37,057 nucleotides of DNA from Candidatus Hadarchaeales archaeon (lineage in GTDB: Archaea; Hadarchaeota; Hadarchaeia; Hadarchaeales; Hadarchaeaceae), in contig JAVZGN010000009.1 in assembly GCA_038872135.1 (NCBI GenBank), forward strand, positions 1-37,057, given 5' to 3'. Positions 237 through 18,801 of the stretch are shown in pieces (the first letter of the stretch is position 1; each line of letters begins with the position of its first letter). The position numbers were made by a program, and so were the translations under genes. The notes below the pieces were generated by a model. It ran no database searches. It was not told the origin of the DNA and saw only the letters and a list, made by a program, of their open reading frames with translations.

Positions 237-665
237 TTAGAAATAGCTGGTGTAGACGACGCCTATCACAATGCCCTCTATCTGTTTTAGGATGGCAAAA
301 TTTTCTGGAGAAGCATCGCCCTTCACCACAAAATAGTTATCCGTGATTGCTAAGACTCTCTTCACATCCAAAACATTGCCTCTCCTATAAATGATGATGT
401 CTTCCGTCATGACGCTTTCCGGCTGGGCCCTGACCCACATGATCGTGTCGTTCTCCCTGATGGTTGGAGTCATTTCCCAGTTCTCAGCCCTTGAGAATTC
501 TATGAGGGGGGAGATGAACGCCCTGTAGCCTCCGAAGAACTCTGAGCGATCTTTTAGCCCAGCCTGAACCGTGGCCCGCCACCTGAGCACACCTGTCACT
601 AGGGAGAAAATGACTGCTGCGAGGAGGATGAGGATGACGACATTTTTTGCTGTTTCCCTATTCAT
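237..665 (-). CDS. S26 signal peptidase-like protein, probably catalytically inactive
   Basis: N-terminal TM helix. S26 boxes are present (MTPTIRENDT, DIIIY, DVKRV, VKGDA, IEGIVI), but the catalytic Ser of GxSMxPT is replaced (NWEMTPT). Confidence 0.75.
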   Translation of the reverse strand: MNRETAKNVVILILLAAVIFSLVTGVLRWRATVQAGLKDRSEFFGGYRAFISPLIEFSRAENWEMTPTIRENDTIMWVRAQPESVMTEDIIIYRRGNVLDVKRVLAITDNYFVVKGDASPENFAILKQIEGIVIGVVYTSYF

Positions 666-668
666 CTT

Positions 669-1094
669 TTACCACCTCGAGGTGAAGAGGGTGCCGATGA
701 CCCGCCCCTCTATCTGGGAAATTATCTCTCCATCGTCGGAGGGGTTGGCATCTCCCTTCGTCAGCACCCCGTTTGGGAGAACTGAGATGACCCTGTGGAC
801 GACCCTTCCCCCTGCCTTCTGGAGGTAGAAGACCGCGATATCGCCCACCCCAAGGTTTTCCACGGGATAGGTGATAGCAAGGACTAGATCTCCGTCTTCA
901 AATGTCGGCTTCATGCTGTTCCCCTGGATCCTGACGGGCCAGATGGCATTGTCGAGAAAGGCCTCCGCCCTGAAGTATCCTGTCCAGTTCTCGAGGCCTG
1001 CTGGGATCGGCTGGGGCTGAGAGACTAGGAGAAAGGAAATAGTTGCGATCAGGATGCACACCAGAAAAGCGATTTCTCTATCTTTTAGGCTCAT
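669..1094 (-). CDS. Signal peptidase I, S26 family (SipW/Sec11-like, Ser-His type)
   Basis: N-terminal TM; GNSMKPT, GDIAVF, VVHRV and TKGDAN motifs intact. Confidence 0.9.
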   Translation of the reverse strand: MSLKDREIAFLVCILIATISFLLVSQPQPIPAGLENWTGYFRAEAFLDNAIWPVRIQGNSMKPTFEDGDLVLAITYPVENLGVGDIAVFYLQKAGGRVVHRVISVLPNGVLTKGDANPSDDGEIISQIEGRVIGTLFTSRW

Positions 1095-8102: not shown

Positions 8103-9617
8103 ATGATTTTTCGCCCAGAGAAGAAGGACCTGAGGATAATCTTCTACGGGATGCGCAATGTTTTTTATCTCATCGGGATACTCCTTCTCATCCCGATAAT
8201 TGTCGCCATCAGCGTCCAGGAGTTTGACATGATTCCCGCCTTTCTGATGGGCGCCTCCTTGGCCTTTATCCTAGGAGTTCTGTGTGCAATTTTCTTCTAT
8301 GAGAAGGAGGAGATGGAGCTCAGGCATGCCCTGGTCATGGCGGCTCTTGTCTGGATCATCGCCCCACTGATAGCTGCTGTTCCTCTCTGGCTCTCCGGGT
8401 TCTTCTCCTCTCCCCTGGACGCTGGGTTTGAGGGAGTCAGCGGGTTCACTGGGACTGGTCTAACACTGGCCCTCGACATTGACCACATGCCCTATAGCAT
8501 GAATTTTCTCCGGCATTTTCTCCAGTTCATTGGGGATGGCATAGGGATAATCGTCATCTCCCTCTCCATCCTCGGGAAAACTGAAATCAGCTCTGTGCTG
8601 GCTTTCAAGGGGGAGGCTAAAGAAACTGGGATAAGGCCGAGCATCGTCCGCACCTCCAGGATAATCATTGGCATTGCCGTGGCCTTCTTTTTAATCGGGA
8701 CGGCGATGTTCACGATTGCTGGAATTGCTGAGGGACAGGAGGCGGGAAGGGCTGTTTTTGATGCTGTCAACCACTCGATGACGGCATATGCAACCGGAGG
8801 CTTCAGCGTTCACTCCCAAAACCTCTTATACTACAGCAGTCCCCTCTATGAGATAGTTGCGGCAATTCTCATGATTTTCGGTGCCCTCAACTTCAACCTC
8901 CACTATGCGGTCCTCACGGGGAGGAGAAGGGAGGCGATAAAAAACACAGAAATCAGAATTTTCCTCCTCATACTTTCAACTGGAGTTCTCCTTATCGCCG
9001 CCAGCATCTTCTCTGCCGGGCTATATACCTCCACAGATGCTGTTTTCAGAAAGGGGGTCTTCCATCTTATATCAGCCCAGACGACGACGGGATTCCAGAC
9101 TGTGCCGGCTCACCACTTCATGGTCCTCTGGCCGGCCTTTTCAATCCTCCTCCTCTCGATGCTTATGGTCATCGGTGGCTGCGCCAACTCAACCTCTGGA
9201 GGGATAAAAATGCTCAGGGTGGGGATTCTCCTGAAAGCCGTTGTAAGGGAGGTGAAGAAAGCCCTTCTGCCAAGCTCTGCAGTAGCCACCGAGAAAATCC
9301 ACCACCTCGAGACCACCCCTGTGACCGACACCATCGTAAGGGGGGCTGCTGTCATCACCCTCAGCTATCTTTTCCTTTTTGTCTTTGGGATGATGGTCAC
9401 GGTGGCCCACGGCTATCCCGTGGGGACCTCTGCATTTGAATCAGCGTCGGCGCTTGGAAATGTTGGGCTCAGCGCAGGGATAACAGCCCCATCCATGCCC
9501 GACACCTTGAAACTCACTTACATCTTCCTGATGTGGGCTGGGAAGCTTGAGATAATTGGAGTTCTTGTCCTCATCGGGTTTGCCATTGCCGCTGTTGTCG
9601 GAGGGCCAAGAAAATGA
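8103..9617 (+). CDS. trkH: Trk K+ uptake membrane subunit
   Basis: Multi-TM protein with four pore-loop motifs (FTGTG, YATGG, QTTTG, LGNVG), GGCANSTSGGIK and MWAGKLE. Confidence 0.95.
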   Translation: MIFRPEKKDLRIIFYGMRNVFYLIGILLLIPIIVAISVQEFDMIPAFLMGASLAFILGVLCAIFFYEKEEMELRHALVMAALVWIIAPLIAAVPLWLSGFFSSPLDAGFEGVSGFTGTGLTLALDIDHMPYSMNFLRHFLQFIGDGIGIIVISLSILGKTEISSVLAFKGEAKETGIRPSIVRTSRIIIGIAVAFFLIGTAMFTIAGIAEGQEAGRAVFDAVNHSMTAYATGGFSVHSQNLLYYSSPLYEIVAAILMIFGALNFNLHYAVLTGRRREAIKNTEIRIFLLILSTGVLLIAASIFSAGLYTSTDAVFRKGVFHLISAQTTTGFQTVPAHHFMVLWPAFSILLLSMLMVIGGCANSTSGGIKMLRVGILLKAVVREVKKALLPSSAVATEKIHHLETTPVTDTIVRGAAVITLSYLFLFVFGMMVTVAHGYPVGTSAFESASALGNVGLSAGITAPSMPDTLKLTYIFLMWAGKLEIIGVLVLIGFAIAAVVGGPRK

Positions 9618-10108
9618 TGAAAAAAATTTTAGCTGTTCTCATCATTCTGCTTCTTGCGCAGCCGGCTGGAGCTGAGAGCATTAGGGAGCTGGTTGAGAAT
9701 TCTCGGTCTTTTGATGGAAAGAGGGTGACCATTTCCGGAGAGGTTATCGGGGTTTTCAAAAAGGAGAGCGCTGGATGGATAAATATCTTTGAAAATGGCT
9801 GGGCGATCGGAGTTCTCGTGACGAAAGAGCAGGCGGAAAACATTGCATTTGTCGGTGACTACCGCCATCATGGAGATGTTGTGATGGTGACTGGCATCTT
9901 CCACATGAGCTGCTCAGAGCATGGGGGGAGCATGGATATCCACGCGGAGAATTTCACACTCCTATCAGCTGGTTGGGAGATTCAGAGACTGCCAAACCCC
10001 ATAACAGTTCTTCTGAGCTCCCTCCTCCTTGCGGCTACAGTTTACCTCGCATATTACATGAGAAAAGTCAGAAAGGAGAAACCACTGCCGGTTCCATTTA
10101 GAATTTAG
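9614..10108 (+). CDS. Exported OB-fold-like protein with C-terminal membrane anchor, coupled to trkH
   Basis: Signal peptide (AQPAGA), 'FDGKRVTISGEVIG...GDVVMVTGIF' OB-like pattern and C-terminal TM with basic tail; ATGA overlap with trkH. Confidence 0.7.
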   Translation: MMKKILAVLIILLLAQPAGAESIRELVENSRSFDGKRVTISGEVIGVFKKESAGWINIFENGWAIGVLVTKEQAENIAFVGDYRHHGDVVMVTGIFHMSCSEHGGSMDIHAENFTLLSAGWEIQRLPNPITVLLSSLLLAATVYLAYYMRKVRKEKPLPVPFRI

Positions 10109-11250
10109 ATGTGGAGCTCGACGATGTCCCTGTCCTCCAGCTGGTAATCTTTCGGCACTTGCTGCCCTGGAAATCTCGTGGAGCCCCACACCCTTGCAAA
10201 CTTCAGGCTCTTCTCAAAATCCTTGTGGACGGCCCTCGCCACATCTATCACCTTGGATCCCCTGGGCAGGACCAGCGGCCTCTTGGCTGGCTCCCCGTCA
10301 GGTGGCTTTGTGTAAACCCTTATCATTCCCAGAGCGTGAAAGATTTCCATTTTAATCTTCTTCTCATCGGCTCCGGCCATCACAACTTTGAATCTCTCCC
10401 CGACCTTGGCCACCAGCTCCTCGACTTTTTCCCTTGCTTTCGGAGAATCACACTTTGTGACGATGATGAAAGCTGGTTTATATGTGATCGAGCGCTCGAA
10501 GATTTCCTCAAGCTCCTCCAGGGAAATGGGCTCATCAATAACCAGATGTGCGTTTGAGATGCCGTGCTCCAGAAGAAGCCGCTTTATCTCTCTTTCCCCT
10601 CCCTCAACAAACTGCCCTCCTCTGATCTCTATCCCACCTGAAGACATCACCTCCAGGGAAACTGCCGGGGGGCGACGGTTGAGCCTGATCCCGCTGGCCT
10701 CAAGCTCCCCGAGAAGCAGTTGCAGTTGCTCGAGAAGATTGCCGGTGGCATCGAGCACAAGGGCCACAACATCTGCGCTTTTTGCTAGGGCTAGCGGTAG
10801 TTTTCCCAAACCTCTTCCGATGCTCGACCCCTCCACCACCCCTCCAGCCTCAACCAGCTGAATCTGAACATCCTCAAATTCCATCATTCCTGGAACCGGC
10901 TCAACTGTGGTGAAGGGATAATCTGCAACTTCCGGCCTTGCCCCGGTGAGCCTCCTGAGGAGGGACGATTTTCCTGAGTTTGGTGTACCGATGAGGACTA
11001 CTTGAGCGGCGCCCTCCTTCTTCACCATCAGCGCCTTCCCACCCCCAACCCTCCTCCCCTTTCTCTCCTCCTGTTCCCGGCGGAGCTTTGCGAGCCTTTT
11101 CTTGAGCATCCTGAGGAGCTTTTCTGTCCCCTTGTGTTTTGGGGCAAGTCTGATGAGCTCCTCGGTTGCAGCTATTTTTTCCTCGATTGTTTTTGCCTGT
11201 GCATATCTCATCTCCGCCTTGTAATATTCTGGGGGAAGATTTGCCGGCAT
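10105..11250 (-). CDS. DRG/OBG-family GTP-binding protein with TGS domain
   Basis: Probable start MPANLPPEY at 11250. Motifs PKHKGTE, GTPNSGKS, ADYPFTT, PGMM and a C-terminal TGS domain (IRVYTK...ARVWG...LEDRDIVELH). G3 and G4 are divergent (EAGG, TKCD). Confidence 0.92.
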   Translation of the reverse strand: MPANLPPEYYKAEMRYAQAKTIEEKIAATEELIRLAPKHKGTEKLLRMLKKRLAKLRREQEERKGRRVGGGKALMVKKEGAAQVVLIGTPNSGKSSLLRRLTGARPEVADYPFTTVEPVPGMMEFEDVQIQLVEAGGVVEGSSIGRGLGKLPLALAKSADVVALVLDATGNLLEQLQLLLGELEASGIRLNRRPPAVSLEVMSSGGIEIRGGQFVEGGEREIKRLLLEHGISNAHLVIDEPISLEELEEIFERSITYKPAFIIVTKCDSPKAREKVEELVAKVGERFKVVMAGADEKKIKMEIFHALGMIRVYTKPPDGEPAKRPLVLPRGSKVIDVARAVHKDFEKSLKFARVWGSTRFPGQQVPKDYQLEDRDIVELHI

Positions 11251-11313
11251 CAGTAAAATTTCTGCTTGGTTTATTTTTCTCTCTTTCCACTTTGGAGATA
11301 TATCCATTTTTTA

Positions 11314-11328
11314 AAAAAATCTTAAATA
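11314..11328 (+). promoter_or_regulatory. BRE/TATA promoter of the putative ncRNA
   Basis: AAAAAATCTTAAATA, ending ~22 nt before the 5' strand of the terminal helix at 11350. Confidence 0.55.
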
Positions 11329-11349
11329 GGGGCTTGAACAGAATTGCTG

Positions 11350-11581
11350 TGGCGGGGATGGAAGCCCGCAGAGGGGGCAGAACCGGAGCCTACGGGCAAC
11401 GGGGAGCCACGCAAAAACGGGGGCGAAAAACCCCGGAAGGGCGTGGATAACCTCCGGGGGGATCGGAGGGATGCATCGACTGCGGGAAAAAGATCCAGAC
11501 CCGAAAAGACGTTGGGCGAGCGAAGTGGTCGAGATTCGCTGGCTCAGCGAAAGAGTAGGGGAGGGATCGAAATCCCCGCCA
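11350..11581 (+). ncRNA. Unassigned ~232-nt structured RNA
   Basis: GC/purine-rich intergenic island. 10-bp terminal helix TGGCGGGGAT/ATCCCCGCCA, cUACGg hairpin, several internal stems, upstream TATA and downstream TTTTTATTTT. No RNase P or SRP consensus recognised. Confidence 0.7.
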
Positions 11582-11615
11582 TTTTTATTTTACTGCACCA
11601 GCAAACGGCTCGATT

Positions 11616-12011
11616 TCACTGCTGTGGCTTTTCCTCAATCAAAACAGCGTTGACGACTCCATCCTGCCCCGGGCGGCTTGTGACCTTTGCTCGCCCGATC
11701 TCGGTCTGAACTATCGCTCCTTTGGTTATCACATTTCTCCTCACAAAGTGGGGGTCTGCAGGGTTGCCAACAACCGTCAGGATCTTTGCCTTTGTTATTC
11801 TGCCTGTTTTTGGATCGGCGACATTTGCCATGTCAGAGGAGTAGAGCACTGTTTTTCTGCCTCCACCATACACGCGCAATTTTGCCTTTTTAACTTGCGC
11901 GAGCCTCACCTCTATGAACTCCCTTCCCATCTCCCTCTTTCTCTTTCCCCTCTTTGGCCAGATTCTGCCACCGGTCGGCTTTTTATCTGATCTTCCCTGC
12001 CATCTTCCCAT
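11616..12011 (-). CDS. rps8e: 30S ribosomal protein S8e
   Basis: WQGRS.KKPTGG, KRKREMGRE, RRNVITKGAIV and VTSRPGQDGVVNA. Confidence 0.98.
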   Translation of the reverse strand: MGRWQGRSDKKPTGGRIWPKRGKRKREMGREFIEVRLAQVKKAKLRVYGGGRKTVLYSSDMANVADPKTGRITKAKILTVVGNPADPHFVRRNVITKGAIVQTEIGRAKVTSRPGQDGVVNAVLIEEKPQQ

Positions 12012-12061
12012 TCTTCACCAAAGAAAAATGTTGCTGGGTGATATAAATCCACCCCGAGAGC

Positions 12062-12577
12062 TCACTTTTGTAGGTTTGACTCAAACCATTCCCTTATTTT
12101 ATCCATATCATCCTTAATCCCGAGGAATGAGGCAAACTTCTGGGAAGTGGTCAAAATTCTGGTTTTTCCATGGGGCCTAGACTCAACAAAACCAACATCG
12201 ATGAGTTTTTTCACCTGCTCGTAGGCTCTGCTCCCCCTGAGCTCCGCGAGCTTTGAGAGGGTTATCCCTGGGCGGTAGGCGATGATGGCGAGGGTCTTCA
12301 TCACCCCTCTCGATATCCTCTCCTTCTTGATCAACCCACCGAGGCGGTTAGCGATATCATCCTGCATCTTTACCGTGAATGCCTCCCCGGGGCTCTCGAC
12401 CAGGACAAATACTCCTCCCCTTTCGGAAAATCTCTGTCTCAGAATGCCGATCACTTCATTGACATAGGTCTCGGAGGAGCTGCCGATTATCTTTCCTATT
12501 TCTTTTGGGGTGAGCGGATGGTCGGCGGCGTAGAGAGCGGCTTCGACAATTTTAACATCTTCCTCTATGCCCATCAC
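12062..12577 (-). CDS. scpB: SMC-Scp complex kite subunit ScpB
   Basis: VEAALYAADHPLT, MKTLAIIAYRPGIT..L.ELRG and TTSQKF...G tandem winged helices. Confidence 0.93.
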   Translation of the reverse strand: MMGIEEDVKIVEAALYAADHPLTPKEIGKIIGSSSETYVNEVIGILRQRFSERGGVFVLVESPGEAFTVKMQDDIANRLGGLIKKERISRGVMKTLAIIAYRPGITLSKLAELRGSRAYEQVKKLIDVGFVESRPHGKTRILTTSQKFASFLGIKDDMDKIREWFESNLQK

Positions 12578-13233
12578 TTCTCACCAGAAAGGGTTATCCT
12601 TATCTCCCCAAAAGGCTCATCCTGCTGCATCCTGATTTTTCCATCGGTGCAGAGGAAAAGCAGGGAGATGAACACCCAGAGAATCTCCTCCCTCGTCTTC
12701 ACCGGAACTAAATCTAGGAGGGTCAAAAAACCAGAAGATTTCAGAGCTTCTTTTATTCTGGTGTAAACGAGGGGGATTTTCTCTTCGAGGGTGATATCCG
12801 AGTCCTGTATTGCCTTGAAATCCTCTTTCCCCCACGCCCTGACCTCAGGTTTTATTTCCTGGGCCTCCTCTAAAGGGATTTCCTTCAGGGCCTCTCTGAG
12901 ATAACCGAGAAGATCTTGAAGGGTTATCCTTCTGGGAGCGAGGTGGAGGAGGGTTATTTCTCCAAGGTCGGGGAGGTCATCTATCATCTCCAGAAGTTCG
13001 TCTGTTTCCTCCCCAATATTTTTCCCATTTCCATTCAGGGCGGCTTCAGATTTCATCCTCAGGAGGAATGCCGCTGTGTAAAGGATTTTGGCTGAGGCTC
13101 TTATGTCGCCCCACTCCCTTATTTTCTGAGAGTAGACCATAATCAATCTGCTTATGTCGACATCCCAGGGGTCGAGCCTACCTTCCCGGACAAGAGCCAC
13201 TAGCTCCTCCGCCGGCCGCTCGATCATTTTCAT
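12574..13233 (-). CDS. scpA: Kleisin subunit ScpA
   Basis: LDPWDVDI, AA.LLRMKSE.L and FISLLFL..DGKI.M.Q.EPFGEI; lies between smc and scpB. Confidence 0.93.
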   Translation of the reverse strand: MKMIERPAEELVALVREGRLDPWDVDISRLIMVYSQKIREWGDIRASAKILYTAAFLLRMKSEAALNGNGKNIGEETDELLEMIDDLPDLGEITLLHLAPRRITLQDLLGYLREALKEIPLEEAQEIKPEVRAWGKEDFKAIQDSDITLEEKIPLVYTRIKEALKSSGFLTLLDLVPVKTREEILWVFISLLFLCTDGKIRMQQDEPFGEIRITLSGEK

Positions 13234-18725: not shown

Positions 18726-18801
18726 GCCGGGGTAGCCAAGCGGTTAAGGCGGTGGGCTGCAGACCCGCTATTCGCAGGTTCGAATCCTGCCCCCGGCTCC
18801 A
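18726..18801 (+). tRNA. tRNA-Cys(GCA), intronless, CCA encoded
   Basis: Acceptor stem GCCGGGG/CCCCGGC, discriminator U, CCA. Anticodon arm GTGGG-CT-GCA-GA-CCCGC. T arm GCAGG-TTCGAAT-CCTGC. Confidence 0.98.

Follow-up and report, generated by a model that had tools for sequence, protein, structure and literature searches.

Among the closest described counterparts of the RNA reported here are the orphan RNAs of bacteria and phages, such as OLE, the raiA motif, GOLLD and ROOL. Bacterial orphan RNAs have repeatedly led to new biology, and together with large ribozymes they typically combine conserved junctions with a complex multi-junction architecture. To our knowledge, no family of large, complex-folded RNAs of unassigned function has so far been reported from archaea. 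Within this domain, Hadarchaeota are a widespread, uncultured subsurface phylum. Full-text searches for Hadarchaeota and Hadesarchaea found no paper describing the RNA, and two preprints from 2026 devoted to systematic discovery of ncRNAs make no mention of the phylum in the main text.

The RNA family described here shares with the raiA motif, OLE, GOLLD and ROOL a lineage-restricted occurrence, an intricate fold with conserved junction nucleotides, strong conservation, high abundance, a stand-alone gene and the lack of an assigned function. It differs from these bacterial or phage-borne RNAs in that it is archaeal, measures only about 200-236 nt, is without an Rfam match and is divided into four paralogue lineages that sit in housekeeping synteny on the chromosome. 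A likeness to the core of the raiA motif, suggested in an initial annotation of this DNA, is not supported, as neither the raiA motif nor OLE, GOLLD, ROOL or HEARO matched at gathering thresholds or even at E ≤ 10.

The gene was found in a stretch of 37,057 nucleotides, hereafter the window, from the genome of a Candidatus Hadarchaeales archaeon (G000; 1.08 Mb, 34 contigs, 91% complete). On the plus strand, window 11351-11581 is a stand-alone RNA gene, preceded by a BRE/TATA promoter of its own and followed by an oligo-T terminator (Table 1). We contend, with a probability of about 0.85, that it encodes an independently transcribed, stable and highly structured noncoding RNA belonging to an undescribed family that is confined, as far as searched, to Hadarchaeota. 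The initial annotation had likewise proposed a novel or highly diverged large ncRNA with a stand-alone, stable gene, and this view is borne out by conservation, covariation and the missing Rfam match.

Table 1. Coordinates of the RNA gene, its structural parts and flanking features, as positions in the window
Feature	Position	Strand	Description and basis
DRG GTPase gene	10105-11307	-	divergent from the RNA gene
Archaeal promoter	11312-11329	+	A-rich BRE-like run, then TATA box TTAAATA (11322-11328)
RNA gene	11351-11581	+	about 231 nt, long form, paralogue type I; 259 bits to covariance model R1
P1, 5' strand of terminal helix	11352-11359	+	pairs with 11572-11579
P1 extension, window copy	11349-11351/11580-11582	+	MFE fold
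J1/2	11360-11364	+	GGAAG, conserved purine junction of the central three-way junction; near-invariant in 93 sequences
Domain A	11365-11486	+	helices 2-6, in each of which 3-8 pairs are doubly changed
P2/P3	11365-11379/11472-11486	+	closes the four-way junction
Hairpin H1	11383-11402	+	
Hairpin H2	11407-11446	+	symmetric 5x5 A-rich internal loop and A-rich apical loop
Hairpin H3	11451-11469	+	
J2/5	11487-11491	+	conserved A-run between domains A and B; alignments A1 and A3
Domain B	11492-11568	+	helices 7-9, by covariation
P5	11492-11496/11564-11568	+	
P6	11500-11502/11558-11560	+	
P6-P7 internal loop	11503-11505/11554-11557	+	5' strand GAA, 3' strand AGUA
P7 hairpin	11510-11549	+	
P7 apical loop	11525-11534	+	10 nt, invariant in 39 of 39 long forms
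J5/1	11569-11571	+	GAA, third strand of the three-way junction; alignments A1 and A3
P1, 3' strand and one unpaired A	11572-11581	+	sequence and covariation; an RNA-contig 3'-to-5' joint starts at 11581
Oligo-T transcription terminator	11582-11593	+	TTTTTATTTT, directly after the terminal helix; T-tracts at 11582-11586 and 11588-11591
rps8e, gene end	11616		convergent with the RNA gene
tRNA	18726-18798		only gathering-level Rfam match in the whole window

The promoter lies within the 43-nt intergenic space that the RNA gene has in common with the divergent DRG GTPase gene, its TATA box standing 15 nt beyond the DRG start codon and about 23-29 nt before the first base of the terminal helix. Between the TATA box and the T-tract the plus strand forms a G+C- and purine-rich block. 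All three boundary marks reported by the initial annotation, namely the TATA box, the T-tract and a perfect helix at 11350-11359/11572-11581, could be confirmed from the sequence. The same layout recurs across the family. A T-tract follows P1 within at most 25 nt in 69/69 members with sufficient flank, and a strict A/T heptamer lies upstream in 54 of these 69, a count that leaves room for weaker boxes in the other 15. Where the heptamer is present, it stands 23-30 nt before the model start in 49 of 54 members, which places the start of transcription at about the first base of P1.

The fold of the RNA is far more stable than its composition predicts. The plus strand from 11345 to 11585 has a minimum free energy of -121.5 kcal/mol, versus -83.9 +/- 4.7 kcal/mol for 200 dinucleotide-preserving shuffles (z = -8.0; 0/200 as stable), and the minus strand folds more weakly (z = -5.7). 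The structure computed by RNAalifold from 39 full-length homologues (alignment A1) comprises 63 base pairs in nine helices; 43 of the pairs show compensatory changes, with at least two doubly changed pairs in every helix. Standard pairs fill 96.4% of the 2449 cells, versus 82.6 +/- 0.4% when partners are shuffled and 33.5-45.5% when partners are slid by one to three columns. Double changes were counted in 345 cells versus 96 +/- 9 in the shuffles, the covariation score is 0.476 versus 0.205, and any of the observed values was matched by 0/500 shuffles. These shuffles ignore relatedness, which the slid controls retain with an equally clear result. A broader alignment (A3) holds 104 matches with 93 distinct sequences from all four paralogue classes, and the 23 column pairs in it with the strongest corrected mutual information all belong to the nested model; the same scan of the 93 sequences found no pseudoknot or long-range tertiary pair. 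Support for the secondary structure is comparable to that of curated Rfam families.

P1 (helix 1; eight pairs, of which four are changed in both strands, and pairing in 96.8% of cells) closes a three-way junction that bears domain A, in which P2/P3 leads into a four-way junction of three hairpins, and domain B, a long hairpin. The purine-rich junction strands are near-invariant over the four paralogue lineages. The internal loop between P6 and P7 is probably loop-E-like, since we take the AGUA/GAA signature of its strands to be a loop-E (bulged-G) motif. As to the invariant apical loop of P7, exact 9- and 10-mer occurrences of its complement on both strands of the genome all fall outside the 42 tRNA genes called by ARAGORN, and this comparison with tRNA genes yielded no target.

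Five of the six internal pairings drawn in the initial annotation are part of the covariation-supported consensus: 11365-11371/11480-11486, the hairpin at 11383-11402, 11451-11456/11464-11469, and 11407-11412/11441-11446 enclosing 11418-11422/11431-11435. The sixth, a local hairpin at 11535-11551, is replaced by pairing of 11535-11549 with 11510-11524, where 11 of 13 pairs carry double changes. Similarly, 11492-11496 had been offered as a pseudoknot or switch partner of the G-rich loop of H3, and its true partner is 11564-11568, paired in every cell of the 39 sequences.

The family is widespread among Hadarchaeota. With a 251-nt query, blastn returned matches over the full length, 72-83% identical, in 30 of the 41 genomes (the source included), often two or three in each. 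The covariance model R1, which is ready for annotating Hadarchaeota genomes, detected the family in 51/66 genomes of the phylum at one to six copies each, and in 20 of the 26 genomes of high quality. By family of the genomes, the positives are 39/45 in f1, 6/6 in f2, 1/1 in f3, 3/3 in f5, 1/9 in f4 and 0/1 in f6. Beyond the phylum, the genomes of 185,579 prokaryotic species, one per species, were scanned for a degenerate motif made up of two blocks of the long form. The scan returned 63 stretches, all from the Hadarchaeota group by title or synteny: 57 have titles of the Hadesarchaea/Hadarchaeota type, four are titled Hodarchaeaceae, one 'uncultured archaeon' and one 'Methanobacteriota archaeon'. 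The four stretches titled Hodarchaeaceae, an Asgard family in NCBI, come from two MAGs and were placed in the window's own family, and the 'Methanobacteriota' stretch has the typical DRG/GGR synteny.

With R1, the RNA was not found in 15/66 Hadarchaeota genomes, which means that it is not universally required in the phylum; its loss in some lineages speaks against a universal essential role. Three genomes assigned to the window's own genus (G001-G003, 88-95% complete) lack it with both R1 and the broader model R2 at E ≤ 1, and their DRG and S8e loci are without the RNA gene. Among negative genomes, the best R2 match has E = 0.17. A divergent homologue at the syntenic site was considered for G003, G001, G041, G033 and G038 and rejected by eye, as these sites are coding or AT-rich spacers and the regions upstream of DRG hold no GC-rich block of the size of the RNA. 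A chimeric bin as the reason for the absence in G001-G003 was also rejected: the DRG protein of the window is about equidistant (53-64%) from all members of the family, so that nothing marks the contig as foreign. Partial model matches lacking P1/P2 (G043, contigs C38 and C103; G057, contigs C18 and C127) had raised the idea of permuted genes, which was dropped because they lie at contig ends and in normal order.

The source genome carries a second copy, which is of the short form (contig C2, 17203-17413, minus strand, 86 bits). A midpoint-rooted FastTree of the 93 distinct sequences resolves four groups which track synteny where the locus is known, a grouping made without support values and with 48 of the 93 tips free of a context label. 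Type long-I, to which the window copy belongs, is divergent from the DRG GTPase gene in a block with agmatinase, uL16 and TrkA; downstream of it lies a convergent geranylgeranyl-reductase-like gene, followed by DUF1616, Pth2 and an AIR-synthase-like gene. Type long-II stands 31-57 nt upstream of the family-B DNA polymerase gene (PolB) on the same strand. The short forms are short-A (about 208-222 nt), located about 80 nt upstream of long-I or replacing it at the DRG locus, and short-B (about 200-217 nt), located near MoeA/MoaA, glutamine synthetase (GlnA) or aldehyde:ferredoxin oxidoreductase (AOR) genes. No class has an adjoining mobile-element gene or a recurrent gene for an RNA-binding protein. 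All of them have in common P1, the junction strands, H1, the H2 internal loop and the AGUA/GAA loop; what varies is the H3 loop and the P7 hairpin. In 14 genomes, the RNA shares on average 77.7% global identity with the window copy, and in these same genomes the means are 72.1% for SRP RNA and 73.8% for RNase P RNA. For the adjacent DRG protein, identity is only 53-64%. Constraint on the RNA is thus no weaker than that on SRP or RNase P RNA.

Expression was assessed in the assembled contigs of a sediment metatranscriptome (X1), which contains 5% of the words sampled from window 10000-13000. At a likeness of at least 85%, 79/79 matching contigs fall in the three bins spanning 11313-11615, and none falls in the 27 remaining bins over DRG, rps8e and ScpB. 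The initial annotation had named metatranscriptome coverage as a check on a discrete RNA species, and in this one run the contigs indeed lie over the RNA only. Summed mean word depths in the three bins are 44,482, 17,795 and 3,196, sums that include relatives. A 199-nt contig is identical to the window over 11382-11580 at a depth of 195, and the other contigs represent relatives. In this one contig-only run, the RNA accumulates in nature far above the neighbouring mRNAs; the contigs come from a single study and as such carry no strand, end or true-abundance information.

Circular forms of stable archaeal RNAs are known, as with the permuted, circularised SRP RNA of Thermoproteus. The new RNA is like these circularised RNAs, among them C/D box sRNAs, rRNA processing intermediates and permuted SRP RNA, in that a terminal helix brings its ends together and in that its hosts belong to a thermophile-associated archaeal lineage; it is unlike them in showing, by eye, neither C/D nor H/ACA boxes and in lacking an Rfam match. 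Circularisation pathways for archaeal stable RNAs are described in PMC12918454 and PMC9014305.

Two joints from the 3' to the 5' end were seen in X1, both from relatives at a likeness of at least 85% and in the one run. The first leads from 11581 through one extra letter to 11352 (depth 1677, shorter side 32) and connects the base after P1 with the P1 start. The second leads from 11571 through six letters to 11360 (depth 1463, shorter side 91) and would retain only the inner three pairs of a P1 variant that is seen elsewhere (e.g., in L004). Both are as expected of a circle, at which they hint, with the added need in the second case for the reverse transcriptase to skip the tip of the stable P1. 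Alternatively, template switching of the reverse transcriptase across the very stable P1 could have produced such joints from a linear RNA. We regard the chances that the ends are covalently joined into a circle as evenly balanced. RtcB is encoded in the source genome and is the only RNA ligase found there; an Rnl3-type ligase was rejected, as the only PF09414 match is an ATP-dependent DNA ligase. No bulge-helix-bulge motif is evident at P1, which is an uninterrupted helix, and the position of the TATA box leaves essentially no 5' leader from which an outer helix could form. The RNA is a concrete candidate for a new stable circular RNA.

Several other explanations of the locus have to be weighed. 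Its 5S-like topology, its stand-alone, multi-copy gene and the G/C-rich terminal helix followed by a single unpaired A, as at the tRNA acceptor end, could suggest that one of the known universal RNAs has strongly diverged or expanded here, be it a 5S rRNA that gained insertions, an RNase P or SRP RNA in reduced form, or a tRNA- or tmRNA-like molecule; J1/2 with P2 also faintly recalls what we take to be the CR-I/P4 region of RNase P. The likeness to 5S rRNA (RF00001) extends to a stable, often multi-copy and highly abundant RNA whose ends form a terminal helix closing a three-way junction, one arm of which has an AGUA/GAA loop of the loop-E-like kind. Against this, 5S rRNA has 121 nt and the new RNA 231 nt, in the latter the other arm branches at a four-way junction into three hairpins, and its loop-E strands are oriented the other way round. 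All 4227 families of Rfam 15 were searched with cmscan at gathering thresholds on the window and at E ≤ 10 on 11250-11650, where only six unrelated matches of no account appeared (E 1.1-8.9, 9-18 bits). At E ≤ 10, no family matched within the RNA itself in four divergent members either, and RF00001, RF00373, RF02357 and RF01857 matched neither these nor the window copy. A snoZ30a C/D-box match in the L032 copy (E = 9.1; 17 bits versus a cut-off of 80) covers the 5' flank and the first bases, and by eye the consensus contains no C/D or H/ACA boxes and no K-turn with a 3-nt bulge. ARAGORN called 0 tRNA or tmRNA genes in 11200-11700, and by covariation the 11564-11568 pairing is long-range, unlike that of a T-arm. 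In addition, the same genome encodes canonical RNase P RNA (C18, 15582-15871, 162 bits), SRP RNA (C1, 31288-31600, 161 bits) and 5S rRNA (C12, 11879-11999, 97 bits), and SRP and RNase P RNAs were each found in 24 of 26 relatives, including genomes without the new RNA. The initial annotation was therefore right to set RNase P and SRP RNA aside; reduced forms of these or a tRNA-like RNA were rejected given the Rfam and ARAGORN results and the canonical copies elsewhere, and an expanded 5S rRNA was dropped given the canonical 5S gene and the missing RF00001 similarity. On the whole we hold a known universal RNA to be very improbable here. A protein-coding gene is exceedingly improbable, even though a 121-aa ORF on the plus strand (11344-11709) spans the region and some minus frame is stop-free over about 236 nt in 37/39 homologues. 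Conservation of this ORF had been named beforehand as evidence against an RNA gene, and the ORF is not conserved: 22/39 homologues have stops in all three plus frames, and it has no Pfam family. The open minus frame varies (index 0, 1 or 2, counted from the shared 3' end), no minus-strand ORF with a start codon reaches 40 aa at this place in the window, and stops are scarce on this pyrimidine-rich strand because the plus strand is purine-rich. Substitutions in the helices are compensatory rather than synonymous, and homologues differ by 1-nt indels.

It can also be asked whether the element acts in cis on a neighbouring gene, given that type II copies lie so close upstream of PolB on its strand, or is an omega RNA, a retron, a fragment of a group II intron or another RNA from a virus or mobile element, as the several copies per genome could suggest. 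Both are extremely unlikely: the RNA has its own TATA box and, in 69/69 members, a T-tract directly after P1; type I copies, that of the window included, point away from DRG and towards the downstream gene; and the contigs of X1 lie over the RNA and nothing else. Its surroundings show no recurring gene for a transposase, integrase, reverse transcriptase or nuclease, synteny is stable across genera, and the long-form motif has 0 matches in a viral contig collection, on which ground a viral or mobile origin was rejected. A trans-acting ribozyme or ligand-sensing RNA, whose purine junctions would form an active site or binding pocket, deserves more attention and is still improbable in our judgement. 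The conservation of single-stranded junction nucleotides in four paralogue lineages, the complex multi-junction architecture and a constraint at or above that of RNase P RNA would all fit it. Neither a covarying pseudoknot or long-range tertiary pair nor similarity to any ribozyme or riboswitch family in Rfam accompanies them, however, and no association with a substrate or metabolic gene is constant across the paralogues; several diverged paralogues per cell would also be unusual for a ribozyme.

Support for the structure, constraint, the keeping of four paralogue lineages and abundance together indicate an important cellular role of the noncoding RNA in Hadarchaeota, and the rRNA-like constraint and abundance indicate such a role wherever the RNA is present. 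As the likeliest mechanism, we propose that proteins bind to a platform built from the invariant junction core and the loop-E-like motif, which would make the RNA a stable subunit or scaffold of a lineage-specific ribonucleoprotein. P1 would hold both ends together and protect them, and the variable peripheral loops of H3 and P7 may give each paralogue its own partner or target. Such a core with different partners is suggested by conservation, which is highest in the single-stranded junction nucleotides and the loop-E-like motif, and by the paralogue-specific peripheral loops. The proposal of a scaffold with paralogue-specific partners is a tentative one, to which we give somewhat less than even odds; it draws on general analogy, as the neighbours are ordinary housekeeping genes that differ between the paralogues. 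Under this ribonucleoprotein reading, the closest working analogue would be the Y RNAs and vault RNAs, which may be compared with the new family in their diverged paralogues per genome, conserved terminal stem and core, variable loops, abundance and loss in some lineages. Unlike them, the new RNA is more than twice their size, and no similarity in sequence or structure to them was found.

A more far-reaching view, which we consider doubtful, is that of a phylum-specific circular housekeeping RNA with up to four specialised paralogues, under constraint like that of RNase P and SRP RNA and among the most abundant transcripts in situ. Such an RNA would lie at the heart of a novel ribonucleoprotein machine or would itself be a novel ribozyme, with a possible link to translation. 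This link is drawn from the 5S-like layout of three-way junction and loop-E motif and from the conserved position of the gene beside those of the DRG GTPase, uL16 and Pth2.

The window's own genome (G000) carries a second, short-form paralogue of the RNA family, 211 nt in length and scoring 86 bits with the covariance model R1, which lies about 5 kb from a gene for the RNA ligase RtcB and, likewise, about 5 kb from two tRNA-Ser genes. In relatives, paralogues of the short-A class and of long-I, the class of the window copy, occur in tandem with a spacing of ~80 nt in six sequence stretches (L109, L074, L101, L061, L015 and L049), each copy having a separate TATA box and T-tract. Before a PolB gene of the relative G009, only the 3' half of a copy is retained (model positions ~120-236), with unrelated sequence in place of the 5' half, and this is probably a decayed paralogue of the long-II class, which is found upstream of PolB.

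Genes for aldehyde:ferredoxin oxidoreductase (AOR) recurrently adjoin different RNA paralogues, as do the molybdopterin genes MoeA/MoaA at loci of the short-B class. The recurrence of AOR may be a mere consequence of the many AOR copies in these genomes.

Motif matches L051, L069, L078 and L084 come from two MAGs with GenBank titles reading 'Candidatus Hodarchaeaceae', an Asgard family according to the NCBI taxonomy. GTDB-based placement assigns both to the Hadarchaeota family of the window, and the record titles probably carry 'Hod-' by mistake for 'Had-'.

Among the protein genes, the DRG GTPase match in the sole genome of the family-level group f6 contains one in-frame TGA. The product of the window ORF between TrkH and DRG has a signal-like stretch at its N-terminus and a hydrophobic one at its C-terminus; no Pfam family was found for it.

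The 5S rRNA gene of G000 has its own TATA-like box, is not linked to other rRNA genes and is followed within 300 nt by tRNA-Asp and tRNA-Lys. The 'tRNA-???' reported by ARAGORN, with a four-base anticodon (tggg), may be a mis-parsed tRNA-Pro with an intron.

Locations of the features discussed (C, contig; L, sequence stretch)
Feature	Location	Strand	Remark
Short-form paralogue	G000 C2:17203-17413 = L113:1501-1711	-	
RtcB gene	G000 C2:11116-12423		
Tandem short-A, long-I	L109:291-499, 579-815		
Half copy	L044:2998-3113 (G009:C17:4231-4417)		
AOR or MoeA/MoaA beside RNA paralogue	L124, L128, L129, L133, L138, L139, L047; also L093, L058, L064, L102, L056, L092		
DRG match L150	G041:C51:1593-2756		
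TrkH-DRG ORF	window 9614-10108	+	164 aa
tRNA-Cys (GCA)	window 18726-18798	+	65.5 bits as a tRNA gene; type called by ARAGORN
5S rRNA gene region	G000 C12:11879-12285		
'tRNA-???'	G000 C3:10341-10435	-	95 nt
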